From Trichodelitschia bisporula (lineage: Eukaryota), in contig ML996700.1 of assembly GCA_010356995.1 (NCBI GenBank), forward strand, positions 558,001 to 622,000: DNA of 64,000 nt, written 5' to 3'. The stretch's first letter is position 1; the number at the start of each line of letters is the position of its first letter. Shown in pieces: positions 8,219 through 35,268 of the stretch. A program made the position numbers and the translations under genes. The notes under the pieces are model-generated. The model was not told the origin of the DNA. It ran no database searches and saw only the letters and a list, made by a program, of their open reading frames with translations.

Positions 8219-10579
8219 TCACACCTCCCGATACGCCCCATAATACCCCCCCGCCACANNNNNNNNNNNNNNNNNNNNNNNNNNNNNNNNNNNNNNNNNN
8301 NNNNNNNNNNNNNNNNNNNNNNNNNNNNNNNNNNNNNNNNNNNNNNNNNNNNNNNNNNNNNNNNNNNNNNNNNNNNNNNNNNNNNNNNNNNNNNNNNNNN
8401 NNNNNNNNNNNNNNNNNNNNNNNNNNNNNNNNNNNNNNNNNNNNNNNNNNNNNNNNNNNNNNNNNNNNNNNNNNNNNNNNNNNNNNNNNNNNNNNNNNNN
8501 NNNNNNNNNNNNNNNNNNNNNNNNNNNNNNNNNNNNNNNNNNNNNNNNNNNNNNNNNNNNNNNNNNNNNNNNNNNNNNNNNNNNNNNNNNNNNNNNNNNN
8601 NNNNNNNNNNNNNNNNNNNNNNNNNNNNNNNNNNNNNNNNNNNNNNNNNNNNNNNNNNNNNNNNNNNNNNNNNNNNNNNNNNNNNNNNNNNNNNNNNNNN
8701 NNNNNNNNNNNNNNNNNNNNNNNNNNNNNNNNNNNNNNNNNNNNNNNNNNNNNNNNNNNNNNNNNNNNNNNNNNNNNNNNNNNNNNNNNNNNNNNNNNNN
8801 NNNNNNNNNNNNNNNNNNNNNNNNNNNNNNNNNNNNNNNNNNNNNNNNNNNNNNNNNNNNNNNNNNNNNNNNNNNNNNNNNNNNNNNNNNNNNNNNNNNN
8901 NNNNNNNNNNNNNNNNNNNNNNNNNNNNNNNNNNNNNNNNNNNNNNNNNNNNNNNNNNNNNNNNNNNNNNNNNNNNNNNNNNNNNNNNNNNNNNNNNNAG
9001 GGGATATAAGGAGGGGAGGGGATAAGGGGAGGGGGACGAACCGGCTGAGCTCAACTTCCGCACCGCCACCTTCTCCATCTTTAAACACTCCGGCAACGCA
9101 GCATACCAATCCCTCAACCGTAACTGAATCGGCTTCGCCCGCTCCAGCACCCACCGCCCGCCCTCCCTCGCGCGGGCACGCCACTCCTCCTCCGCGCGCA
9201 GGGTGTAAAACTCGCTCAACACCACAGCGAGTATCTCCGTCAACCGTATCATCTCAGAGAACAACACGCGCCCCTTCTCCACCTCCGCACTCCCCTCCTC
9301 ATCATCCTCGTCCGCCGCGCTCTCCGGAAAGTCAGACGCGGCCACGGGCTTGACGAGCCAGTCCGCGGGCGTAATGTGCGAAGGGCGGCCATGCACCAGC
9401 GCACCCCATTTGTCCTGCATGAACAGCGCCCACGCAAGCCGTTTCCGCAACCCCTTCTCCCACGCCGGAATCCGCCACCGGGAGCAGTCCAAATGCAGTC
9501 CCAAGTCCTGCCCTAGCCCGACCAACTTCGTCGTCAACGCCCACTCATCCCCCTCCGGCCGCTGGAGCAACAATAGCCCCGCCTGAATCGTGCTCAGTTT
9601 CGGCCTAGCAACGACATACCCCATCGTCCTAAGCGCAACCCTTTCCAAAGCGCGGACATCCGGTTTTGGGCGAGCGGCCAGGGCAGCGCTGTACGCCCAC
9701 CAGTTCAGCGCGAGGATGTACACGGCGGCCAGCAGCGGCGGCGCAAACTCCCTGTGACTGCGCGCGTATTTCTCCAAGAAAACCCTCTTGTGCAAGATCG
9801 GAAAACTGGGGTGTACGATCCGGAAATACAACCTGACGAGCGCAGGCCCATGACCCCCGACCAAGCGCTCCACGGCATCCGCATCCCCCGCCTCGTCGCC
9901 CCGCCTCAGCGTCCCGGTGTCAGGGAGAAGGACAAAAGCCGCCGCGCCACTGACCCGCCGCAGCGAAGCCGCATGCAGCGAGGCCGTCCCGTCGGGGGAC
10001 AGCGGCAACTCATCCCCCCGCGTAGAAAGCTGCCCCACCAGCGCGCCCTCAAACTCCGAACTCCCGCCCACAAACCTGCTATGTCGATGATTCTGCAACC
10101 CCAGCGTGCGCTTCAACAAACTCGGCCCCTTGAGCGTCGCATAATCCGCCGGCACCTCCCTCTCCTCAACCGGCTCCGGACTCCCCCCTACCGCCTGGGC
10201 GCCCGACGCATCCTCCGTCGACGGCAGCGGGGCAGACAGAGGCGTGGACAGTTTACGGCGCTTTTGCCGCGGAAGCGGGTTCTCGTCGAAGCTGCACACC
10301 TGCCGGTGAAACCGACACAGCACGCACGCGGGGTCGTTGTCGCTGAATTCGCAGCGCGATTTGCGCTTGCGGCATGCGTCGCAGGGGCGGCGGGGTTTGG
10401 TCTTCTGCAAGGAAGGGGGGCCCGTCGGCACGGCAGCAGTCGGGAGCGCGGAACCGGGCGCGGGGGCCGCGGGGGGAAGACCGCTGGAATCCTATAGCTA
10501 ACGTCAGAAACACTCGGGAAGGGGAAGGGAGCGGGGGAGAGGGGCAACCCACGCTGTCCTCAGTCAAGACAGAGCTCAT
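8219..10579 (-). CDS. DAL81: Zn(II)2Cys6 transcription factor, Dal81/TamA-like; part of the 3' region lies in N gap 8259-8998
   Basis: RPCDACRKRKSRC...CVLCRFHRQVCSF cluster and fungal TF middle region (YFRIVHPSFPILHK, RKRLAWALFMQDKW). Short first exon 10579-10553 and intron 10492-10552. The stop at 8219 is inferred across the gap. Confidence 0.8.
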
Positions 10580-11151
10580 GCCCACGATGCTCAGCGACAA
10601 GGCCGGACCCTCGTCGATCATATACGCGATACATCTGCTCCCAGGGACGCGGGAAACTAATATCGAGAAGAACCGATGACTAGTCGATACGAAAAGATTT
10701 GCTCTGACGTCGGCGAGAGATCTGTAGCTGCGATTTCCCCTCGGCCCTTGAGATCGGGCTCCGCGCCGACGCCGGCTGCTCCCCGTCGCGCCGCGCGCCG
10801 CGCGCGTGCTCCTGTTGGGTCTTATCTAGCGCGGAGCTGAGGAGGCGCTCGTGGCTTCGTCGTGATTGGTTGTGCGAAAAAGCAAACAACGCCCCCCGGG
10901 CTGGGCGGGCGATGATAAGGCGCGTTAATGGGGTTATGTCAGCAACGGCGAAAGCAGCACGGAGGACGGAGTCGCGGATGCCCAATTGGGAAGTATGGCA
11001 TTAAAACGCTATATTCGATTCTCAGGACCGGCCGCCGGACCTACGCTCAACAATGGCAGAAACGACTCGTCTTCGTCCTTTGGAGGCTTTCAGCCTTGGA
11101 CCCCCCCCCCCCTCCGTCCACCGCACCTATTCTACTGTAGCATTCGCGCGC

Positions 11152-12932
11152 TCAGACAATTTCCTTCTCCACCGTCACAGCCGGGTCCTTGAGATCGACC
11201 TCCTGGCCCTCCGAGCTCGGGGTCGTGATCTCGCCCTTCTGCGGCGGGTACACGGCCTCGTCGATGAGGCTGACGGTCTGCGGGAAGAAGTGGTTGATGG
11301 CGATGTAGGTCACGACCGTGGTGACGAAGCCGTAGATCCAGGCGAAAGCGTAGAGCTTCCACGCGCCGCCTACGTCCAGGTCGTTGCTGATCGACTTCGC
11401 GAACCCGGGCATCAGCGGCGCGACGCCGACGCCGAAGGCGGCCCAGGCGCGCCAGTTCACGCCGTGGTTGTACCAGTAAATGCCGCGGTCAGTGTACAGC
11501 TCGTGCAGGTTGAGCTTGCGCTTCTTGATCTGTGGCGCATTAGTGCGGCTGGAATGACGTGGAGGGGGAAACGTACGATGTAGTAGTCCGCAACGATGCA
11601 CCCAGCCATGGGGCCCATGAGGCACGAGTAGCCCGACAGGAAGGCGAGCAGACCCGCGGCGTTCTTGATGATATTCCACGGGGTAACCACGACGCAAAAG
11701 AGCGAGATGAACAACGTGCCGCGGAAGATGTTGATGTACTTGGGCGCCAGACCCGTGACATCGTTGGAGAACGGGTACGACCCAGCAGCCACCTGGTTGC
11801 CAATCGTAGCCAGCATGAAGCTCAGCGAGACGAAGAACTTGGCGGCGCGGGAGTCGAACTTGGCAATCACGGCCGGCATGTACCACTGGAAGGAGCCCCA
11901 GAGGTAGCTGTGGGCGCTGGTGACGAAGATGGGCGTCAGGGCGCCGAGCGTGCCGATGATGGGCAGCGCGAGGAACTGGTGCCCCCCGGCGAGGCGGTTC
12001 TTGCTGAAGCGCCCGAAATCAGGCATGTTGACCGCCATGGAGGAGAAGAGCCCGATGATCACGTTGAGCCCGGTCAGTGCCGAGTAGGCGGTGTTCATGT
12101 ACGTCGACGTGATCTTCATGTGGCCGGTGACGAGCGGGCCGCCGCCCTTGGTGACAATCACGGCCCAAAGGAAGAGCGCAAAAAAGGTCGGCGGCACGAC
12201 GACCGCCTTGACCCAGAACAGGATGCGCAGCTTCTCAATGGGCATGAGACACAGGATCGTCTGCAGGATCCAGTACAGCATGAAGGTGAGCAGTTCGGCC
12301 GACGTAATGCCCGCGTTGTCGGGCAGGTGGTTCGGGAAGTGGATGAAGCTAGGCCAGATGGCCTCGATCATGCGCTGGAGGAAGTTGCCTGCCTGCACGC
12401 CTGTGGACCATTAGCCTCACCCTTTACAAGATCGAAGCCAAAGCACTTACACAAAATCGCCGTCCACATCAGCGCAACGAAGGCACGGATGCAAATCGCG
12501 GGAAACGACCCGTACATGCCAAACGTACTCCGCACCACGACGGGAAAGGGGATGGCGTAGGTCGCGCCGATCTTGCCCGTCGCCGTGATGACGAAGGAGC
12601 AGATGAGGAAGCCGAAGAACACGATGGGGATGGTCTCACGCGCCGTGAAGCCCAGCGACATGACCGTCGACACGGTGCTGGCCAGCGGCGGCGCCAACAT
12701 GTCCGAGCACCAGTAGGCCCAGTAGTCGACACCGCCCCAAGTGCGCTTCTCTGGCGGGATGGGGTCGAGATCTGGTCCGTTAGCATCGCGGCCTGCTCTC
12801 CCTAGAGTCAGAGTCCATACCTGGGTTCGACCATCGCGGGTTGTCGGCATACATGCCCACCTTAAAGGGGACATGGAGATGCATCTGCGGGCCAATCTTG
12901 GCCTTGAGGCGACGAGGCGAGAGGAACGACAT
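11152..12932 (-). CDS. NCS1 family (Fur/Dal4-type) nucleobase/allantoin permease, 3 introns
   Basis: Spliced RWSNPDLDPIPPEKRTW, IPFPVVVRSTFGMYG, NMPDFGRF, PKYINIFRG, TPWN and YWYNHGVNWRA motifs typical of NCS1. Confidence 0.92.
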
Positions 12933-13452
12933 GATGTGTCAAAGGCCGGAATCCAAAAACGGAAATGTGAAAGGCCAGGACCACGTTGCGAGGATCGACG
13001 TGTCTGAGTCCCGGGGCCCCTTGCGCTTGATATAGGAGGAGCCCGCGTGCTTTCATCTGCACAGACGGAGCTTTCCACGTGAGGCTATCGTCGTGGCTGG
13101 GGCTCGATACCAGTTCGTCGATACCGGCTGGCGCATGGTAGAGCGGCGCGCCTCCGGGCCTACGGTAGTAGCGGGCCCGCCAGCGGGAACCGCGATACGG
13201 TTGCAAGTCTGGGCCCGCATATCAATCCGGCGCCGTGGTTCTGTGCGGAGATTTGCGGCTAGTGGTTGGTGTGTTGTGGGGTGCAGCTGAGCTGAGCTCT
13301 ACAGGCTGGAGCTTCGTCCAATGATATCCCGGCCGCACACTGATCCGTTTCTTACAGGTCGAAACATAAATGGCATGAAAGCTCGATCGCCACTAGAGTC
13401 CCTGCAGGGTAAGCTGCATCTCAGCCTTGAGGGAGGCGGGGAGGGCGTTTTG

Positions 13453-13465
13453 CTTATCCCTTATC
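13453..13465. promoter_or_regulatory. Paired GATA sites (CTTATC x2), candidate AreA/Nit2 elements
   Basis: CTTATC at 13453 and 13460, between the permease and hydrolase genes. Confidence 0.4.
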
Positions 13466-13837
13466 TGACCTGGTGTCGCGCTATCCGAACAAGTGCCTCA
13501 TCGGGACGATGCAACGATCTCTTCCCGGAATATGAGAAGCGCCACATGTACTCTTTGCAGTCGAATGCTTCCCTTACCTCGCTTGACCTTGCTGGGGAGT
13601 CATCTCTCTCTCTCGCGTATCGACCGCTGAATGGGCATAGGCAATGGAAGCATTGGCTCACAAGAGAAAGATGGTGCAGCACGGCGGTAAAAGACAAGGA
13701 GAGGAGGGGGAGCCGCGCAGCCGAGATGACATTCCACCTGTCCCTTCCCCCCACGGATGCGCCTTCTGCTGCTGATGTGCACATTCCCAGGAATAAGAAT
13801 GCTCCTTCCAACGGTGACATACCGGTATGTCTACCTT

Positions 13838-14072
13838 TGATGCAAACATGAGGCAGGAGCATTGTTATGTCAGGAACGAGCAATGTTACTCTTGAGAAGG
13901 TACATGATGTAATGTACTCATGATGGAAGGAAGGAGTATCGGAGGGCCTTTGCCACATCGTATATTTAGTCTCGAGCGTCTCTTGACTCTCTCCTCTTCT
14001 TCAAGTTTCATCAAACTTCTAAATAGTACTTCACCTCTAGCCATTGCAAGTGACAAGCCTATGCTTCCATTA
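13838..14072 (+). mobile_element. Solo-LTR-like element, copy C (degenerate), inside a divergent promoter
   Basis: Starts TGATG. Contains GGAGCATTGTTATGTCAGGAA, ATGATGTAATG, GAAGGAAGGAGTA and CTCGAG blocks. Ends AGCCTATGCTTCCATTA, matching copy A AGCCTTGCTCCCATCA. Confidence 0.65.
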
Positions 14073-14605
14073 GCTTCAAGTCCACATCAATAGGTACCCC
14101 GAGATAACACCGTCCCAGCTTCAGCCTGAGCTACTTCACTGGGAGAACCACGGCAAACCTCACCCGAGCTCGTATGGCCAACGGAACTTCGTTATGGCCG
14201 CTTATTGCACTCACACTTGTCAGAACCACAACACATGGCATTCTAGAAATCCCAGCTCCCGGCCCCCACTAGCGCATGCATGCAAAGCTTCAGCCCAACG
14301 CCCACAGCGTGGGGTCTGGGGGTCTAGTTCTAGCCCCGGGAAGCACCCCGGCAACCCGATAAGGCGGCCCCGACCCCGCACAAGCGGCCGGCCGACGGCG
14401 CCCCGCCGGCCACCGTCGCCGCGTGCCCCGGTCCCGCCGCCCGCCCTCGCCATTATGCGGGGCACGTAAATGGTCGTGCAGCCTAGCAGCCCATTGGGGG
14501 CAGAGCGGATCGCACTTTCTCTTTCTCCTCTCTCGTTGCTCTCTCGTCGCTCCTTCGCAGCATCTACCGGCCAAAGAGCGCCCAGGAGACAGCACAGCAC
14601 TCACA

Positions 14606-16888
14606 ATGGCGACCTCACAGCTCCCCTCGCTCCTCAGCATCGATGCGAAGCCGTACGCCTTTGCCTTTCCGCCGCAGCATACCGCGCTACTCGTCATCGA
14701 TATGCAGCGCGATTTCCTGCTGGCAGGCGGATTCGGCGCAATCCAGGGCGGCAACCTGGAAGCCGTGCAAGCGTCCATCGCGCCGACGAAGAAGCTGCTT
14801 GAGGTGTGCCGGCGCGCCGGGTTGACGGTGTTCCACACCCGCGAGGGCCACAAGCCCGATATGTCTGACTGTCCCTCGTCGAAGCTAGTCCGCCAGGCGG
14901 AGGCACCGGAGAACACGCAGCACACGCTGGTTATCGGGGATAAGGGACCGATGGGCCGGCTGCTGGTGCGCGGTGAGTACGGACACGATATTGTGGATGA
15001 GTTGGCGCCGCTGCCGGGAGAGGTGGTCATCGATAAGCCTGGGAAGGGGTCGTTCTGGAATACAACGATCCTGCATAAGCTTAAGGCTCGCGCGATTACG
15101 CATCTGATAGTTGCGGGCGTGACGACTGAGTGCTGCTTTGCCACGACTATTCGCGAGGCTAATGACCGCGGGTTTGAGTGCTGTGAGTTTTTGCGTGTGC
15201 TCAGAGGGGGTGGGTGTTAATGGTAGCAGGCGGCATCGAGGAGGCGACCGCGGGGTACAATGCCGAGTTCAAGTGCTCGAGCCTGGAGATGCTGTACTGG
15301 TCGCAAGGGCTTTTCGGCTTCGTCTCGTCACTTCAGCCGCTCGTTGACACCCTCGAGCCATATACCACCGCTCCCACGTCGCTCACCTCCCCCCCAATCA
15401 CCCCACCGGCCTGGGACGGCAACGTGACCATCCCCAGCCTACAAGCCGCCTACCGGGCCGGCCTCTCCCCCGTCACCGTCGCAGAAGGCGTGCTCAAATA
15501 CATCGAGCAGTACGAAACTGAAAACCCCGGCGTGTGGATCCACCGCGTGCCCAAGGACGTGGTTCTCGAGGCCGCCAAAGCGCTCGCCGCGAAGTACCCG
15601 GATAAATCCGCCCTGCCCCCGCTCTTCGGCGTCCCGTTCAACATCAAAGACAGCCTTGACGTCGCCGGCCTGCCAACGACGACCGCATGCCCGCCCCTGA
15701 CGCACATCGCCTCAACCAGCTCCCCCGTGTACGACAGCGTAATCGCCCAAGGCGCCCTCTTCATCGGCAAAACGAACCTGGACCAACTCGCCACGGGCCT
15801 AACCGGCTGCCGGTCGCCCTACGGGCGGCCGCACTCTGTCTTCCACAACGACTACATTTCCGGCGGCTCGAGCAGCGGGAACTGCGTCAGCGTCGGCGCC
15901 TCACTCGTCTCCTTCTCCATCGCCACCGACACAGCGGGGAGCGGCCGCGTGCCCTCCGGCTTCAACGGCGTGGTCGGGTACAAGCCGACGCGCGGCCTGC
16001 TCAGCACCGTCGGACTCGTCCCCGCCTGCCTATCGCTCGACTGCATCGCCATCATCTCGCGCACCGTCGCCGACGCCCGGACCGTCTGGCAAGTCGCTGA
16101 AGCCTACGACCCGCGCGACCGCTACGCCAAGAACCCACTCGGCTTCGAGCGGCACGTCAACGCCACCGGGCCAGGAGCGCGGAAATTCACCTTCGGGATC
16201 CCCCCCCCAGAGGCGCTCTCCGTGTGCGCCCCCGTCTACCGCGCCATGTTCCACAAAGCGATCGCGCGACTCCAGGCAATGGGCGGCGAGCTGAGGCCTA
16301 TAGACTGGAGTCCCTTTGAGAAGGCAGGGAGGCTGTTGTACGACGGGACGTTTGTGAGCGAGCGCCTTGCGAGTTTGCCGGATGATTGGCTGGAGAAGAA
16401 TCGCGGGCACTTGCACCCTGTGATTCGCGAGCTGTTCGAGGCGGTGGAGGCGAGGGGGAGCACGGCGGTGCAGGCGTACCGCGATTTACAGGCTAAGGCG
16501 CTGTATACGCGGCAGGCGGAGCTGGTGCTTGGGTACGGGGACGGGGGCGTGGATGTTGTGGTCGTGCCTACGGCGCCGACGCATTGGACTGTTGAGGAGG
16601 TGTTGGAGGATCCGATTAGGAAGAATAGTGCGCTGGGGGTGAGTTTTTTCTGATGTGTGTTACGGTGGGGGACTGGCTAACGAGTGGCAGGAGTTCACGC
16701 ATTTTGGAAACGTGCTCGATTTGTGCTGCGTTGCGGTGCCGGCGGGGGCGTATGCGGAGGGGGAGCTTAGGCCGGGGGCTGGGGACGCGCCGCTGCCGTT
16801 TAGCGTTACGTTCCTTGGGGGGAGTCGGATGGATGCTGAGACGTTGGAGATTGCGAGGAGGTTTGAGCAGGGCCTTTTGAATAGGTGA
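14606..16888 (+). CDS. Fusion of an isochorismatase-family cysteine hydrolase (biuret/triuret-hydrolase-like) and an allophanate-hydrolase-type amidase; introns 15183-15229 and 16639-16690
   Basis: N-domain: VIDMQRDF, HTREGH, GPMGRLLVRGE, IDKPGKGSF, GVTTECC, REANDRGFEC. C-domain: IKDSLDVAGLPTT, GKTNLDQ, RSPYG, GGSSSG, DTAGSGRVP, LLYDGTFVSER. Both introns join in frame. Confidence 0.9.
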
Positions 16889-17116
16889 GGGATATGTGTG
16901 AGGTTGGGGCCGCGGTTGGGTTTGGGCGGTGATCTGTTGAAGGTTTGGGAACTGGACGGGTCACGGTTGGGTTGGGTTGCATAACTCGTACATAGCATTT
17001 TGACGAATCTAGGCCGTGAATTAACACTGGTATTGCGGGTGTCTTTTGGGGTATTTCGGGATTCCATTTTGCCGGAGAGTCCGACTTACGGTCGTCAGCC
17101 ACGCTTCGTACTCTCA

Positions 17117-17842
17117 TCATACCCCCCACACCCCCCCCCCCTCCCCAATCGGCCCCAGCGCAGCACCAAAATCCCCTGCGCCAAACCTCGGCGCCTCGCC
17201 CCTCATCGGCGCATTCGGACTCAGTTTCTTCCGTCTCCGCTCAAGGCCTGCTTTCGACGGGAAGGTCGGGAACATAGCCGTACTCTTCGGGCGCGGATCC
17301 TCAGTGAAGTACGGATGTGTTAGGACCTGTGTGGCGCTTGGGCGGCCTGCCGGGTTAAGTTCGAGAAGGGAGGAGAGCAGGTCAACGCCTGCGGTGGTGA
17401 GGAGGGGGAATGCCGGGCGCAGCGAAGGCGGAGGCGGTGCGGTGGACGGTAAGCGCAGGGCGCGCGCGTTCGGCAATCGGCGTACGGACGGCCAAGTCGC
17501 TTCCGTAGGCGTGCCGCGGAGGGCAAATATCTAGCCCGTCAGCACCACTCCTTCCATCGGGAGCAACACACCTTCCCCACCTGATCCACCTCATTCTTCC
17601 CCTGCAGCAACGGCTCCTTGCCAAACAACTCCCCGAATATACACCCCAGGCTCCACATATCGATCGCGCTATCATAGACCGATGTCCCGAGGAGGAGTTC
17701 GGGCGCGCGGTACCAGAGGGTGACGACGAGTTGGGACATATTGGCGAGGGGGGGGGAGGAAAAGTGGCGTGCCATGCCGAAGTCGGCGAGTTTGGTTTGG
17801 CCGCGGTTGTTGAGGAGGATCTATGGGGGGGTTAGGTGGGAT

Positions 17843-17892
<50 letters not shown>

Positions 17893-18704
17893 GTGGGGGG
17901 TACGTTGGAAGGTTTGAGGTCGCGCTGGGGAGTGTTAGTGGTGGTACTTTTGGGGGTAAGGGGATGGGGGGAGGGGGACGTACGTGGAGAATCCAGTGAT
18001 CGTGGAGATACTCCACCGCCGAAGTAATTTGCAGCATCAGCGTCTTAATCTCACTCGGCAAAAACGGCTCCACCATATCCTCCTGCAGCGCGCGCAGATC
18101 ATGCTCCAAAAACTCCATCACCAGATACACACTAGCACAACAATCAGCCCCCCTTTCATCCCCAAATCTTCACAACTCACTCAAGTAACGTCGTCCCCAC
18201 AACCACCTCCTTCAAATCCACAATATGCGCGTGGCGGCACTCCTGCAGCGTTTGTATCTCCCTAAGCGCCATGTCGGGGAAGCCATCCCCTATCCGGCCC
18301 ATTTTTAGCTTCTTGAGGGCGACGATTGAGCCAGTGGATAGGTCTTTGACGCGGGAGACTGTGCCGTAGGTTCCTTCGTCGATGTGGTTTAGTTGTTCGA
18401 AGATGGAGACGCGGCGGCTGGGGGACCATGAAGGCGCGGTGAGGCGGAGGAGCGCCAGTGGTGCCTCTGGGGCGGGTTCCTCTGGGGCGGGTTCTTCGGA
18501 TAGGCGCCGTCGCTTAGTTGGCCGGTGATCCGTGGGTCTGTCGTCGGCTTGTAAGGCTTCTTGTTCGCGTTGTCGTTGCTGTGCAGCTGCTTCCTCGGCG
18601 GCCCGTCGTTCGCGCTCCGCTTTCGCACGCCGTTTTTCTTCTTTTTCACGTTTCCGAGCCTGCGCATCGGCGTCGTCGTCTGCCCAGCGGGATTTACCGG
18701 CCAT
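17117..18704 (-). CDS. cdk11: CDK11/PITSLRE-like Ser/Thr kinase, 4 introns, including a 21-nt micro-exon at 17904-17924
   Basis: [10 protein letters not shown]-terminus, [25 protein letters not shown], spliced [38 protein letters not shown]. Confidence 0.88.
17843..17891 (+). repeat. Poly-G homopolymer (about 49 nt) in a kinase intron
   Basis: Directly visible. Confidence 0.9.
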
Positions 18705-18954
18705 GATGTCGAGGATAAGGCGTTGATATAGTTCGGGGATGAGGCGTTGACGTCGGGGTGGTCGTGGTTGAGCTGTGGTTGAGCTCGGAGGTGCGGTGCG
18801 GAGGTCGCGGCGGCGCGGCGTCGCCTTGCGGCCAGAACTTTTTTTTTCGCGGGGAAGCAAGACGACCGGCTGGGCCTACGTCGGGCACTTCACAGCTACC
18901 TCACGGATACGACACGATATCAATGGCACATGAGACGACGTCCACGCGATGATT

Positions 18955-23060: not shown

Positions 23061-26000
23061 CTAAGCGGAGTCCTCTCCACGAAGCGGCTGCAAACTGTAA
23101 ACACCGTCCTTGACCTGGTAAAAGTAGCCCTTCCTGTCAGCAATAATCGTACGACGCACATCCTCAAGCTCGCGCTCGATAGCCTCGTTCCAATCCGCAA
23201 CAAACTTCTCATGCTCCTTATCGTACTTATCGGGGTGCTCGAGGACCATGTGCACGAGAAGCGCACCGCCCGTCTGGAAAACCTCACGTTCCTTCTGAGC
23301 CTTCTTGTCGTTCACATCCTCAGCACCATCATTGTCCTCAGCACCGTGCTCGTCGCAATAGGAGCACGACGCGGGGACAAAGGGCTCGGGGGGGGGAATC
23401 TCCTCGTCCAAGTCTAAGTTGGCGAAGAGGGCGGCGAGTTTGGCCTCTGCGACTTTGGCTTCAGCCGCGAAAGGCGCCATGGCCGCGCTGGCCTCAGCGA
23501 CTGCCTTGTCAAAGATCTCGGACGCCGGCTTGGGAGGGGGCCCGATGTAGCTGAAGTCGCACAGCTCCTCGAGATCGGGGACCGAGTCGACCTCCTCCAC
23601 TGGCGGGGGCGGAGTCCAATCGGCTGGGACGTAGCCCTGCTTCTGCCACGCGAGCATCATCCGAATGTACTCATCGTGGTCCATGTCCAGGAGCTGCTGT
23701 TTAGTAACGTTCAACGCCCACTCCTGGAAGGGGTTGAGCGAGGGATCCGGCTTGATGATTCTAGGCGGGAGCTCGTAGAAACCGGGGCCACCGTCGGTGC
23801 GCACCTTGAGGTAGTGGTTGCCAACCTTGTGGTATTCATCGCGGCTCACTAGAACTACCTTGTTGTGGGTTTTGCCGACCTTGTGGTGCCCGGCAGCCTC
23901 GAGGGTCGCTGCTGAGCGCTCTTGCTGGTTGTCAGCGGCCACTTCGCTGTCAATATCGCTGTGAGTCTCACTGCGATGAGCTGTACCAGTGCCGAGGTTT
24001 AAACCCATGGCGTAGCCGTCCAGGATTTGCAGAAGGTCGGTGTTGCTCGTGAGAACGTCTGCGTTCTCGGCTTCAGCAGCAGTAAGAAAGCTCTCGATGA
24101 AGTCTTCGGTGTTGCTTGAGGAGACTTTTGCGTTCTTGACTTCGGCAGCAGTAAAGTCCTCAAGGTCGTCAATCACGGAAGCTTTGGCCTTCTTTGCCAT
24201 CAGCTTGCGCGAGTTCCTCTGCTGGGCCGAAAGCGGCTTCCCCTCACGGGAAAGAGTCTCGTCATTGACGGAAGGCACGTCCTCAGGGTCGCTTTCAACC
24301 TCGACGCTGGCAGAAGAAGCCTCGGCTTCCGCCATCCGAGCCGCCTTCCTTGCCTTCTTTTTCTCCTTCAGATTGCGCCATTTCTTCTCTTTGCGCGTGA
24401 GCACCTTCCCCTCGCTGGGGACGTTGTCGTCATGGAGGGGAGGCACGTCCTCGGGGTCGCTACCGGCTTTGAAGTTGTCCAAAGAAGCCTCGACTTCCGC
24501 CTTCAGAGCCGCCTCTTTCTCCTCCAGATTGCGCCGTTCTTTCTGCATGCTCGAAAGCGACTTCCCCTCGCTGGAGACGTTGTCATCATGGACGGAAGAC
24601 ACGTCCTCAGGCTCGCTATCAGATATGAAGCCGCCATGAATGCGCGGGCGAGGAGCCACACGAACGGGCTTGCCGTTATTGCGCGGAGTGTACTCATCAG
24701 TGCTCCACCCATCGTCATCATCATGGACCGCATTCATCTCTGTAGGCTTGCCCATCGAACCTGCGCTCGAGGGGGGACGGGCAACGGCCACTTTAGCAGA
24801 GTCGCTGACAGTGCTCCACTCATCATCACCAGATTCCGCCTTGATCTCTTCCAGCTCATCCATCGCACCTGCAGTCGCCGGGGCTAGGACAAAAGCCTCT
24901 CCAGCAAAGTCGGGGCCGGAGAGAAACTCCAACTCAGCTTTGGTAGCGGGGGAAAGATACGCCTGGGCACGAGACTCCATCGCACCTGCGGTCAAGGGGC
25001 CTTGCGCAACGGTCTCTTCAGCAAAGTCGGCGCCGATAAGAAGCTCCAAGTCACGCGTGGTAGCAGAGGAAACACGCGCCTGGGCACGAGCCTCGCTCAA
25101 CACAATGGTGGTGTCGATGAGCTCAAAAGTGCCACCCATGCCGTCATCAGCATCGGAGTTGCCAGTCTCGACTTGCTCATCGGCAGGAACGACGAAGTAA
25201 GCGCTACCCATGTCGGAACTAACGTCTTCAGCTGCGATACCGGAAGCAACGACTTCAGCTGCGATGCCGGAAGCAACGACTTCAGCTGCGATGAAGGAAC
25301 CAACGTCTTCAGTCGCGATGTCGAAAAGAACGTCTTCAAGCGCGATGTCGAAAGCAACGTCTTCAGCCGCGATATCTGACTGCGTGCCGAAACCAAGGTC
25401 TTCAGGCGCGACACCAGACCGCGTGCCGGAATAAATCTCTTCAGCCGCGATATTGAACTGCCTGTCGCTTGTAAGTTCGATAAGCTCGCCGATGTCCTCG
25501 ATGGGGGATTCCGAAGTTCTAGCCGACTTAACTGGATTAACCGGCAGACCGGGCAGGAGGAATTCCGCGGAATCCTCAGAAGCGATGCTCATAAGATCCC
25601 CCAAGTTCGGGGAAGGAATCAAAGCAGGAGTCTTATAAGGTTTCTGGTTCACGGAAGCCTTGAATGCCTCGGTGTCCAGCTCAGACAAGTCTAAGATCGT
25701 GTTCTTGGAAAGCTCGGCGCTGTCAGGCCGCTTCGGCTGTTCGAGAAGAGGCTCCGGTGTCAGATCGACAAGAGGCTGTGTCGTCGAATCGAAAAGAGGC
25801 TGCGTCGGCTGTTCGAGAAGAGGCTGCGATGTCAGATCGACAAGAGGCTGCGTCGTCGAATGGACGAGAGACTGCGTCACATCGACAAGAGGCTCCTTTG
25901 AGACACTGACAGGGGCCTGCAGATCATGTGCCAGGTCGCGCTTCGGAATATTCGCCGGTGCCTTCTTTGCCGGAGATGTCGCGCTCTGCTTTGTCGCCGG

Positions 26001-27650
26001 ATGCTGCGCCGCGATCTTTGTCTGAGACTTTTCCAGAGGCTTCTTTGCTGGAAACTCCGGGGGCTTGATTGCCGGAAGCTTCGGCGCGTGCTTTGACAGA
26101 AGAAGGCTCGAGACATGCTTTTTCGGCGAAGCTTTGTCGGCAGCCTTCGCATGTTTGCTTACCGGAAGCTTCGGAGTCGTGATTGCAACAAGCTTCGGCG
26201 CGTGCTTTGACGCATAAAGGCCCGTAGCAGGCTTTTTCGGCGAAGCTCTGTCGGCAGCCTTCGCAGGCTTCACAGCCGGGCTCTTTGCGGGATATTCCGT
26301 CAGATCCATCTTCGTCGAGTTCTGTCCCGCATCTTGCAGCTTGCGTGCCGCAATCTCGATCTGCTTAGCATGCATACCGCCGCACGTACAGTCGATCTCG
26401 TGCTTAGTGGCATCGTGCAGGGCCTTGCTGCGAAAGAAGGGGAACCGCCGGCCTTTGCACTTCAGACAGAAGAGATGCTCCTCCTTGGAGGCATGACGGC
26501 TGAGGTCTTCAATGAAGGAGAACGTCATCCAGCAGACCGTGCACTGGAAGCCCGGATGAAACGTGCACAAGGCCTTCGTTACATCGACTTTGTACGATTG
26601 ACTCTGCAGCCTACGCACAGCAATAGCCGTCTCTTTGGCATGATTGCCGCCGCACTGGCAGTCAATCTCGTGCTTGGAAGCATTGTGATCAGCAAGGCCG
26701 ATGAAGAAGTCGAACTTCCTGTTGTTGCACTGCTTGCAGTGGAGATGCTTCTCCTTGGTGACATGCTCATCGAGGTCTTCAATGTAGTCGTAGAACACGC
26801 CGCAGACGCTGCAGCGGAAGCCCGAGTGCTCGATGCCCGCTTCCATCAAGGCTTGGTAGGACTTCGGCAAGTTGAACTTGTCCGGTTGGGGCTGAAGCTT
26901 GCGCGCAGCGACATCGATCTCCTTGGCATGAATGCCTTCGCACTCGCAGTCGGAATGGTGTTTTGCGGCGTCGTGTGCGGCCTTGCTGGCGAAGAAGGGG
27001 AACGGCCGATTGTTGCACTGCTCGCAGTAGAGATGCTCTTCCGCGGTGGCATGCTCGGCGAGATCTTCGATGCAGTGGAATCCGCTCTGGCAGACGGTGC
27101 ACTCGAAGCTATCATGGGGCCGCATCGCCTGGTGTGCTGTTTTCCGTTTAGCAAGGTTCTTTTTACGCTGCTGCCAATCCTTCAACCAGGTCTCCTCAGT
27201 GCGCCAAGGGAGCCCATTCAAGCCGTGAGCTTTGATGACATGCTGCTCGAGCTCGGCCTCAGAGCCAAAATACGTCGTTTCGCATACGAGATCCCAGTCC
27301 GGGCGCTGCCAGAAGCAGATGATGCACTTGCCGTCACAATATGCTTCGCACTCCTTGAAGCCCGCCTTGTGCACCCACTGCAGGTGGAGCATGAGGTGAG
27401 AGCGCGTGTGATAGAGGGCGTCGCACAACCCGCAGACCCAGATCTTCTTGAGCTTCGGATGTTTCTCGTCGACGTGTGCGTCCAGTTCTTCCTCCGTCTT
27501 GAAACGCGTGCTGCCGCGGCAGGGCTCGCACTCGAATAGACCGTGCATACACATCTGGTGCATGACCCGTTGGCTCTCGGTGCCGTAGTTTTTGCCGCAG
27601 CATTCGGCGCGCGGGTCGACGCTCTTCCAGATGAAGAACTCCTGGGACAT
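23061..27650 (-). CDS. Very large (about 1530 aa) C2H2 zinc-finger protein with multiple internal repeats
   Basis: Uninterrupted ORF with first ATG at 27650 (MSQEFFIWK). Many CxxC..H..H motifs in the N-terminal part, followed by Lys/Pro-rich and acidic repeats. A GTAAGT...TTTCAG intron just upstream (about 27713-27783) leaves the start uncertain. Confidence 0.75.
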   Translation of the reverse strand: MSQEFFIWKSVDPRAECCGKNYGTESQRVMHQMCMHGLFECEPCRGSTRFKTEEELDAHVDEKHPKLKKIWVCGLCDALYHTRSHLMLHLQWVHKAGFKECEAYCDGKCIICFWQRPDWDLVCETTYFGSEAELEQHVIKAHGLNGLPWRTEETWLKDWQQRKKNLAKRKTAHQAMRPHDSFECTVCQSGFHCIEDLAEHATAEEHLYCEQCNNRPFPFFASKAAHDAAKHHSDCECEGIHAKEIDVAARKLQPQPDKFNLPKSYQALMEAGIEHSGFRCSVCGVFYDYIEDLDEHVTKEKHLHCKQCNNRKFDFFIGLADHNASKHEIDCQCGGNHAKETAIAVRRLQSQSYKVDVTKALCTFHPGFQCTVCWMTFSFIEDLSRHASKEEHLFCLKCKGRRFPFFRSKALHDATKHEIDCTCGGMHAKQIEIAARKLQDAGQNSTKMDLTEYPAKSPAVKPAKAADRASPKKPATGLYASKHAPKLVAITTPKLPVSKHAKAADKASPKKHVSSLLLSKHAPKLPAIKPPEFPAKKPLEKSQTKIAAQHPATKQSATSPAKKAPANIPKRDLAHDLQAPVSVSKEPLVDVTQSLVHSTTQPLVDLTSQPLLEQPTQPLFDSTTQPLVDLTPEPLLEQPKRPDSAELSKNTILDLSELDTEAFKASVNQKPYKTPALIPSPNLGDLMSIASEDSAEFLLPGLPVNPVKSARTSESPIEDIGELIELTSDRQFNIAAEEIYSGTRSGVAPEDLGFGTQSDIAAEDVAFDIALEDVLFDIATEDVGSFIAAEVVASGIAAEVVASGIAAEDVSSDMGSAYFVVPADEQVETGNSDADDGMGGTFELIDTTIVLSEARAQARVSSATTRDLELLIGADFAEETVAQGPLTAGAMESRAQAYLSPATKAELEFLSGPDFAGEAFVLAPATAGAMDELEEIKAESGDDEWSTVSDSAKVAVARPPSSAGSMGKPTEMNAVHDDDDGWSTDEYTPRNNGKPVRVAPRPRIHGGFISDSEPEDVSSVHDDNVSSEGKSLSSMQKERRNLEEKEAALKAEVEASLDNFKAGSDPEDVPPLHDDNVPSEGKVLTRKEKKWRNLKEKKKARKAARMAEAEASSASVEVESDPEDVPSVNDETLSREGKPLSAQQRNSRKLMAKKAKASVIDDLEDFTAAEVKNAKVSSSNTEDFIESFLTAAEAENADVLTSNTDLLQILDGYAMGLNLGTGTAHRSETHSDIDSEVAADNQQERSAATLEAAGHHKVGKTHNKVVLVSRDEYHKVGNHYLKVRTDGGPGFYELPPRIIKPDPSLNPFQEWALNVTKQQLLDMDHDEYIRMMLAWQKQGYVPADWTPPPPVEEVDSVPDLEELCDFSYIGPPPKPASEIFDKAVAEASAAMAPFAAEAKVAEAKLAALFANLDLDEEIPPPEPFVPASCSYCDEHGAEDNDGAEDVNDKKAQKEREVFQTGGALLVHMVLEHPDKYDKEHEKFVADWNEAIERELEDVRRTIIADRKGYFYQVKDGVYSLQPLRGEDSA

Positions 27651-27853
27651 GAGGACCGGTCGCGCGTTGGTGCGGAGCTCAAAGGATGGCGCTTGCGGTT
27701 GCAGGTGGGAATCTGAAACCGAGGAAATCAGTATTGTTTTCAAGCAAGGCGATACAAATCGCAAACGCTTGAAGCAACTTACCTGCAAACTTGCAAGACA
27801 ATGGGAAATAAGGACTGGTAAACAGTGAGACTTTGTTGACAAAGGGTAGGGAA

Positions 27854-28043
27854 CGGTAGAAAGACGACACCAAGTCGCGAGGAGGGGATACCAACGATGA
27901 GCAGTTGTCTCTGCAAGAAAACAATCAGAGTTGAGGAAGAGGGGTGCGGTAGAAAAACACGACACCAGGTCGCGAGGAATGGGGGAATTGACAACAATGC
28001 GCAGATGTCTCTGCAAGAAAGCAATTGGAGTTGAGGAAGAGGG
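27854..28043 (+). repeat. Imperfect tandem duplication, about 93-97 bp x2
   Basis: CGGTAGAAA..ACGACACCARGTCGCGAGGA and TGTCTCTGCAAGAAA..GAGTTGAGGAAGAGGG each occur twice; units start at 27854 and 27947. Confidence 0.85.
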
Positions 28044-35007: not shown

Positions 35008-35268
35008 TAACGGGAGCAAAGGCTCCAGCACGTACAGAGGCAACAGTGCAAACTGAAGATTGAAGTAAAGATGAGGAAGAGAGTCAGAGACTCTCGAGAC
35101 TACATACATGATGCAAAGTACCCTCCTATGCTCCTGTCTGCTATCATGCGTACATTACATCATGTTCCTTTTAAAGAGTAATAGGTTTCTTCCAAAGAGT
35201 AGTATGCTCCTTCCAAAGAGTAATATGCTCCTTCCTCACATAACAATGCTCCTTCCATGTCTACATCA
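35008..35268 (-). mobile_element. Solo-LTR-like element, copy D, with internal GGAAGGAGCAT sub-repeats
   Basis: Reverse complement starts TGATG and has GGAAGGAGCATTGTTATGT, ATGATGTAATG and CTCGAGAG. It ends GAGCCTTTGCTCCCGTTA. Confidence 0.7.

Follow-up and report, generated by a model that had tools for sequence, protein, structure and literature searches.

In bacteria, triuret is converted to carboxybiuret by TrtA, carboxybiuret gives rise to biuret either through TrtB or spontaneously (with a half-life of about 20 min), BiuH turns biuret into allophanate, and AtzF finally releases ammonia (PMC7948467; PMC12625717). The corresponding biuH-trtA-trtB-atzF operon brings a transporter and a regulator together with these hydrolases, with trtA placed before atzF. 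It has been stated that trtA occurs in some fungi, and where triuret and biuret come from in nature, and what role they play, have been described as open questions (PMC7948467). Here, we describe a related fungal system found in a 64,000-nucleotide stretch of the Trichodelitschia bisporula genome (the window; GenBank assembly GCA_010356995.1, contig ML996700.1, positions 558,001 to 622,000), in which three adjacent intron-bearing genes encode a Dal81-family Zn2Cys6 regulator, an NCS1 permease and a fused hydrolase. This three-gene cluster is real, spliced and conserved. Set against the bacterial triuret/biuret pathway, it appears to show three coordinated departures, namely in the hydrolase pocket, in the carrier and in the missing middle steps.

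The fused hydrolase joins a TrtA-like cysteine hydrolase domain to an amidase of the allophanate hydrolase type, combining the first and last enzymes of the bacterial triuret route in a domain order that is also that of a rhizobial plasmid operon, trtA-cupin-atzF. Four sequencing runs were aligned to positions 8999-17100, two of them DNA and two (X3 and X4, from one sample) guessed to be RNA, although none of the four is recorded as such; only splice joints were taken from X3 and X4. Six GT-AG introns are skipped in the contigs from X3 and X4 and are unskipped in the two DNA runs. Since one spliced contig of 2,347 bases holds both hydrolase domains, we could exclude a gene-model artefact as the origin of the fusion. 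The exon model is identical to an existing T. bisporula record (P0001) that its source names an amidase. An AlphaFold prediction for the fused protein had low confidence, with a mean predicted local distance difference test (pLDDT) score of 64, and was not used.

Among solved structures, the N-terminal domain is matched best by TrtA from Herbaspirillum BH-1 (PDB 6XIX; E 2e-65) and then by BiuH from Rhizobium (PDB 6AZO; 1e-51). To compare their pockets, the TrtA positions given in PMC7948467 were transferred to the fungal domain by alignment and residues were counted in 84 fusions, kept from 120 listed proteins (of 792 found) on the basis of more than 65% identity, a length of at least 600 residues and an alignment reaching past residue 222. 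The TrtA-equivalent Asp-Lys-Cys triad (D24, K129 and C162) is present in 84/84 fusions, together with F29, E72 and K132, which in TrtA are among the residues that bind the proximal ureide (PMC7948467). The TrtA consensus residues F35 and E160 are likewise found in all 84, and Y187 in 83. In the window protein the triad is D32/K144/C177, and F43, E175 and Y202 are of the TrtA type.

The remainder of the pocket is different. At the position of TrtA Q202 all 84 fusions have Ser, at L39 all have Gln and at I205 all have Leu, whilst 82 of 84 have Gly in place of N41; the resulting set in the window protein (S217, Q47, L220 and G49) is unlike TrtA and BiuH alike. The register at Q202 is ungapped and anchored on both sides, and a Gln found one residue further on in 83 of the 84 fusions might partly stand in for Q202. 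Bacterial-type sequences from metagenome loci kept Q202 in 28 of 29 cases and had Gln at position 39 in none of the 29. The fungal domain shares its fold and triad with BiuH, which makes allophanate, the compound on which the fused type of amidase classically acts, but it lacks the BiuH consensus of Tyr47, Met51, Tyr53, Asp173 and Gln215 and scores only 225 bits against a cut-off of 370 for the BiuH family (NCBIfam NF050097). Guanylurea hydrolase (GuuH) carries Glu at the Q202 position, where the fusions have Ser throughout. Filing the domain as either TrtA or BiuH was therefore dropped, as both its pocket residues and its BiuH score fail. Given that the catalytic residues are kept and the pocket residues changed, the fungal domain is predicted to be chemically like TrtA and BiuH, yet a member of neither.

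The lost Gln is likely to matter, as Q202 in TrtA, or Q215 in BiuH, contacts the distal amide, and the BiuH Gln215Ala variant has a kcat/KM of 357 compared with 149,742 for the wild type (PMC5806882). In the TrtA study, no single change was found that switches specificity between TrtA and BiuH (PMC7948467). These data bear upon an alternative in which the domain is a plain triuret hydrolase whose biuret passes to an unlinked BiuH or is excreted, with the amidase using allophanate made elsewhere, for example by a stand-alone urea carboxylase. The TrtA-type F35, E160 and Y187 and the reported presence of trtA in some fungi would agree with this, as would the unlinked urea carboxylase and 'stand-alone' amidase of several Dothideomycetes (PMC3073912). 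However, Q202, N41 and I205 are all replaced in the fusions, the TrtA variants Q202E and N41Y retain less than 10% of activity (PMC7948467), and fusing two steps that do not follow one another, and keeping that fusion so widely, would be the less economical arrangement, which together make this alternative rather improbable.

In quick trees, the fungal domains form one clade (99) amid TrtA-type sequences. A scan of exact fungal peptides against genome contigs gave one weak match and was uninformative as to a bacterial form of the pocket. Green algae and one Paenibacillus carry tandem BiuH-type and TrtA-type domains in one protein (P0002-P0005, P0019, P0055, P0056, P0083 and others), an arrangement unlike the fungal fusion.

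The C-terminal domain is closest to AtzF (E 1e-98), followed by the yeast urea-amidolyase domain (1e-68), and so lies nearer to the bacterial enzyme than to the AH domain of yeast Dur1,2. It shares with both the Ser-cisSer-Lys triad and a Tyr/Arg pair, and the residues concerned (K332/S406/S430, Y563 and R571) are invariant in 83/83 fungal and 65/65 bacterial-type sequences; we take the conserved Tyr/Arg pair of AtzF to be carboxylate-binding. Identity to plasmid AtzF is about 41%. In contrast with AtzF and Dur1,2, the AtzF C-terminal domain is absent, with the match stopping at profile position 446 of 600, and the partner is a cysteine hydrolase rather than a urea carboxylase. Scores for the full-length AtzF family fall below the cut-offs (457.8 against 487 and 426.2 against 511 bits). 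At one further locus (L050), biuH and atzF adjoin but are not in a single frame. The first-pass annotation had proposed a ureide-nitrogen theme for this cluster, and this is strengthened by the kinship of the two domains to TrtA/BiuH and AtzF and by their trtA-cupin-atzF order.

If one considers the two pockets together, a different ureide could be envisaged, namely an acylurea that ends in a distal carboxylate, oxalurate or ureidomalonate for example, from which the cysteine hydrolase would strip the carbamoyl end to leave oxamate or malonamate for the amidase. The exchanges of Gln202 for Ser and Leu39 for Gln would suit a distal carboxylate, the amidase keeps its Tyr/Arg pair yet has a distinct fungal pocket, the permease is co-remodelled, AtzF is weakly active on malonamate and the yeast Dal82 system is induced by oxalurate. 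Nevertheless, the fusions retain Glu160 and Lys132 of TrtA, the amidase resembles AtzF rather than malonamidase (E 7e-90 against 7e-13) and the cluster has no ring-opening enzyme, and we therefore consider an acylurea substrate unlikely.

The second departure concerns the carrier. Transp_cyt_pur (PF02133) spans the whole permease, as in Mhp1 and Aspergillus nidulans FurE, placing it within NCS1. Mhp1 binds the hydantoin ring through Asn318, termed completely conserved, and Gln121 (PMC4195764), and FurE uses the same ring-binding residues (bioRxiv 588368). An alignment of Mhp1 with a homologue (P0241) whose binding-site motifs are also those of the window permease reveals that Trp117 is kept, whereas Gln121 is replaced by Leu, Asn314 by Gln and Asn318 by Gly. 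Among proteins at least 60% identical to P0241 (n=65), at least 54 have Leu at 121 and at least 53 have Gly at 318, whilst relatives below 40% identity have Asn318 in 22/22 and Gln121 in 21/22 cases, with one unaligned. The window permease, with Leu and Gly at these positions, thus falls outside the canonical Fur/Mhp1 type and belongs to a separate group reaching from Ascomycota to Basidiomycota: homologues 55-87% identical over the query exon occur in Ascomycota and some Basidiomycota, and beyond these identity is at most 42%. The allantoin- or uracil-type cargo first suggested for this carrier is weakened by the loss of the Mhp1 and FurE ring-binding residues. Because the Gln121 and Asn318 contacts are gone, canonical allantoin or uracil cargo appears unlikely and the assignment was dropped; their loss would fit a non-cyclic cargo.

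It had been set beforehand that conserved linkage would be one test of the cluster, and this was passed strongly for the permease and fusion and more thinly for the regulator. Linkage was counted by hand, and 17 strains, all Dothideomycetes, had both a named fusion and a named permease. In 17/17 of these same-strain pairs the two lie on contigs of equal size, down to 54 kb, and in 5/5 pairs checked (Melanomma, Polyplosphaeria, Aulographum, Patellaria and Lophium) they have consecutive accessions; a sixth pair has consecutive locus tags (ACEQ8H_004021/004022). The divergent permease-fusion pair recurs at locus L002, where the fusion is only about 52% identical. Large ankyrin-repeat genes, one with an NTPase-like part, lie right downstream of that fusion (L002 6984-12792). 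Among the matches listed, named fusions come from Dothideomycetes, Sordariomycetes, Eurotiomycetes, Lecanoromycetes and Geoglossomycetes, and a 110-member cluster in the ESM Atlas has both domains in every member.

For the regulator, the linkage scored was adjacency to the permease. The two adjoin in Geopyxis (KAI5799062/063) and in a pair with locus tags R6Q59_010224/010225 (regulator P0341, permease P0287), and in Pyrenula they are joined in one gene model. The R6Q59 assembly is labelled as the plant Mikania micrantha and the record is 96 Mb long; the pair is probably fungal sequence within it. Of 20 regulator matches and one permease checked, these were the only cases tied to a permease, and the rest were unnamed or came without a partner for comparison.

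Other loci carry related arrangements. At L004 (2871-12184), a related Dal81-family regulator is accompanied by a Fur-type permease of the canonical kind and by a 2-oxoglutarate/Fe(II) dioxygenase, and the fusion there retains Gln202; L005 gives the same matches. This sister cluster suggests a second substrate that would require prior oxidation. At L015, a fusion-type amidase end lies beside a permease of the L004 type, and no permease was found within the available DNA of L001 or L008, whilst L003 covers too short a stretch for this comparison. L001 (4338-6479) has a divergent, eukaryote-like fusion with a predicted intron and with Gln39 and Ser202, and there is no permease in the 4.3 kb upstream. 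The L004 dioxygenase could demethylate or hydroxylate a precursor, which raises the prospect of another cargo class, such as a nucleoside-like compound, an N-methyl ureide or a guanyl compound. No dioxygenase is present in the window cluster, however, and its hydrolase has Ser, not the Glu of guanylurea hydrolase, at the Q202 position. Although the Leu replacing Gln121 is also found in the uridine carrier Fui1 (PMC4195764), such a cargo seems to us a poor prospect.

The regulator had been described as Dal81/TamA-like, which we keep only as a family-level assignment. It combines Zn_clus and Fungal_trans domains, shares its Zn2Cys6 subfamily with yeast Dal81 and A. nidulans TamA, and its homologues (48-67% identical) include some called DAL81-like by their source records; yeast proteins are also among the profile matches. 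In a quick tree of 84 sequences with no named TamA included, it sits in an open fork, and no cluster clade is separated from Dal81/TamA. Dal81 acts in the induction of DUR1,2 (PMC10169451) and, by analogy, the protein encoded here, which sits in a catabolic cluster, is probably an inducer-responsive co-activator, a view of its regulation that we infer solely from the linkage and from this role of Dal81. The divergent regions of the window and L002 have no common word of 10 bases or more.

It is also conceivable, though we would give it well under even weight, that the permease and hydrolase form a real pair and the regulator is a general Dal81/TamA co-activator or a bystander without specific control over them, which would be compatible with the other readings. 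The tree would allow this, Dal81 and TamA can do without their zinc cluster, with Dal81 acting via partners (PMC10169451), and the Lophium homologue lies on a separate contig from the permease-fusion pair. Conversely, three assemblies, one from a Pezizomycete and one from a Eurotiomycete, have the regulator next to this permease, and the regulator is also present in the L004 cluster, where the permease is a different one. The Lophium protein, moreover, shares only about 46% identity with the window regulator (measured on its cluster representative) and may be a paralogue.

Taking these elements together, the reading that we prefer, and to which we give about even weight, is that the module obtains nitrogen by importing a linear ureide of the triuret/1-carboxybiuret/biuret series and hydrolysing it in two steps via allophanate. 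Such compounds are oxidation products of purines. The remodelled NCS1 permease would import the ureide, and the cysteine hydrolase domain would release its terminal amide as ammonia by way of a thioester at Cys177. Allophanate would then form, at once where biuret is the substrate or otherwise following spontaneous decarboxylation, and would be cleaved by the amidase domain to ammonia and CO2, with the Dal81-family protein co-activating expression in response to an inducer. Within the pocket, Gln47 and Ser217 would take over the contact lost with Gln202. With neither TrtB nor BiuH in the cluster, the simplest view is that the TrtA-like domain probably performs their step itself, its substrate being either biuret or first triuret and then carboxybiuret. 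Deaminated carboxybiuret could then decarboxylate to allophanate, much as the deamination product does in the AtzE route (PMC6219798). There is no need to invoke channelling from one domain to the other, since urea amidolyase, an analogous enzyme, lets its allophanate go into the solvent (PMC5770610). The gene structures, the fusion, the family assignments, the catalytic residues, the exchanged pocket residues and the conserved linkage are established directly; all of the substrates, the part played by Gln47 and Ser217, the coupling of the domains and the regulation are inferred.

Compared with the bacterial operon, the fungal cluster has one cysteine hydrolase rather than two, no cupin, an NCS1 rather than an ABC transporter and a Zn2Cys6 rather than a LysR regulator, and its hydrolase differs from TrtA in being fused to an amidase, in having introns and in lacking trtB and biuH alongside. 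Descent from a bacterial trtA-(trtB)-atzF operon may be supposed. More tentatively, this might be an undescribed and widespread fungal pathway whose TrtA-derived domain, amidase pocket and NCS1 site have all been remodelled, either for a natural ureide beyond the reach of any known enzyme or so that a single enzyme mineralises triuret in the absence of TrtB and BiuH; L004 would then represent the ancestral form, acting on another substrate.

Several observations weigh against a linear ureide of the triuret/biuret series and the three-gene module built around it. As the Gln needed to bind both known substrates is gone, the substrate may fall outside this series, and the Leu shared with Fui1 is not peculiar to this carrier group. 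At twenty amidase positions that bacteria conserve, the fungal fusions have other residues. Although neither a cupin (TrtB) nor a second cysteine hydrolase (BiuH) is present within the 64-kb window, either could lie elsewhere in the genome. Approximately unbiased (AU) tests on a 29-sequence subset did not reject placing the fungal domain beside BiuH (p 0.107) or apart from TrtA and BiuH alike (p 0.126). The only Dal81-family protein found in Lophium is the one on the other contig, and the four GATAA sites of the divergent region are no significant enrichment over the 2.0 expected (P=0.13).

The contiguity and orientation of the three genes proposed at the outset are borne out by Pfam and the exon models, and the spacing of the last two genes, put at about 1.7 kb, is 1,673 bp from the permease ATG (12932) to the hydrolase ATG (14606). 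Coordinates are collected in Table 1.

Table 1. Features of the cluster, in window positions.
Feature	Positions	Strand	Basis
Dal81-family Zn2Cys6 regulator	8219..10621	-	Pfam, splice joint, homologues
Assembly gap, 740 N, within regulator gene	8259..8998	.	
NCS1 permease, 544 aa, four exons	11152..12932	-	Pfam, spliced contigs, Mhp1 alignment
Divergent intergenic region, 1,673 bp, four GATAA sites	12933..14605	.	
Dispersed repeat, 147 bp, within divergent region	13846..13992	.	contig branching
Fused hydrolase gene, 727 aa, three exons	14606..16888	+	exon model, splice joints
TrtA-like cysteine hydrolase domain, residues 9-228	14630..15336	+	
Allophanate-hydrolase-type amidase domain, residues 257-720	15421..16864	+	

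Pfam places Zn_clus (PF00172) and Fungal_trans (PF04082) at 9049-10491(-), PF02133 across three exons from 11155 to 12772(-), Isochorismatase at 14606-15181(+) and Amidase at 15232-16638(+). The regulator starts at an ATG at 10621 or 10579, with an intron at 10492-10552 and a long exon down to about 9042; its next intron and last exon or exons fall within the gap, the stop at 8219 being a predicted one, and spliced contigs extend beyond 9041 into the segment expected next from regulator homologues. The permease introns are 12772-12820, 12401-12450 and 11530-11576. The hydrolase exons are 14606-15182, 15230-16638 and 16691-16888, separated by introns at 15183-15229 and 16639-16690. One X3 spliced contig (9170-13856) spans the permease and regulator, which share a strand and are on separate contigs in X4; read-through or overlapping untranslated ends could possibly explain it. 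Contigs branch at either end of the 147-bp repeat, and partial copies lie near 35078-35256 and 1031-1117. On the left, the cluster is bounded by a Ca2+/H+ exchanger-type gene (PF01699; 6464-7940(+)) convergent with the regulator, and on the right by a cyclin-dependent-kinase-like gene at about 17117-18875(-), recognised by eye from the open reading frames and convergent with the hydrolase. Further along, 23061-28043(-) is a single long open reading frame (about 1,500 codons) whose translation has an acidic tail and repeated Cys/His motifs resembling zinc fingers.

A literature search found the fusion, the altered pocket and the cluster nowhere described; Robinson 2018, which lay outside its reach and reportedly surveyed fungal homologues, may mention the fusion. 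A 2011 survey listed 'stand-alone' allophanate-hydrolase-like amidases in five Dothideomycetes, A. niger, Sclerotinia and Trichoderma, and the word isochorismatase does not occur in its main text (PMC3073912). These amidases are probably the fusions described here.

These fungi carry a third, strictly conserved version of this pocket beside those of TrtA and BiuH, paired with an orphan NCS1 subfamily to match and accompanied by a candidate regulator. Identifying the substrate would name a nitrogen source of many plant-associated, lichen and soil fungi, and would assign a function to carriers that are now often annotated as uracil or allantoin permeases. It also bears on whether fungi help to clear the biuret and triuret that accompany urea fertiliser.

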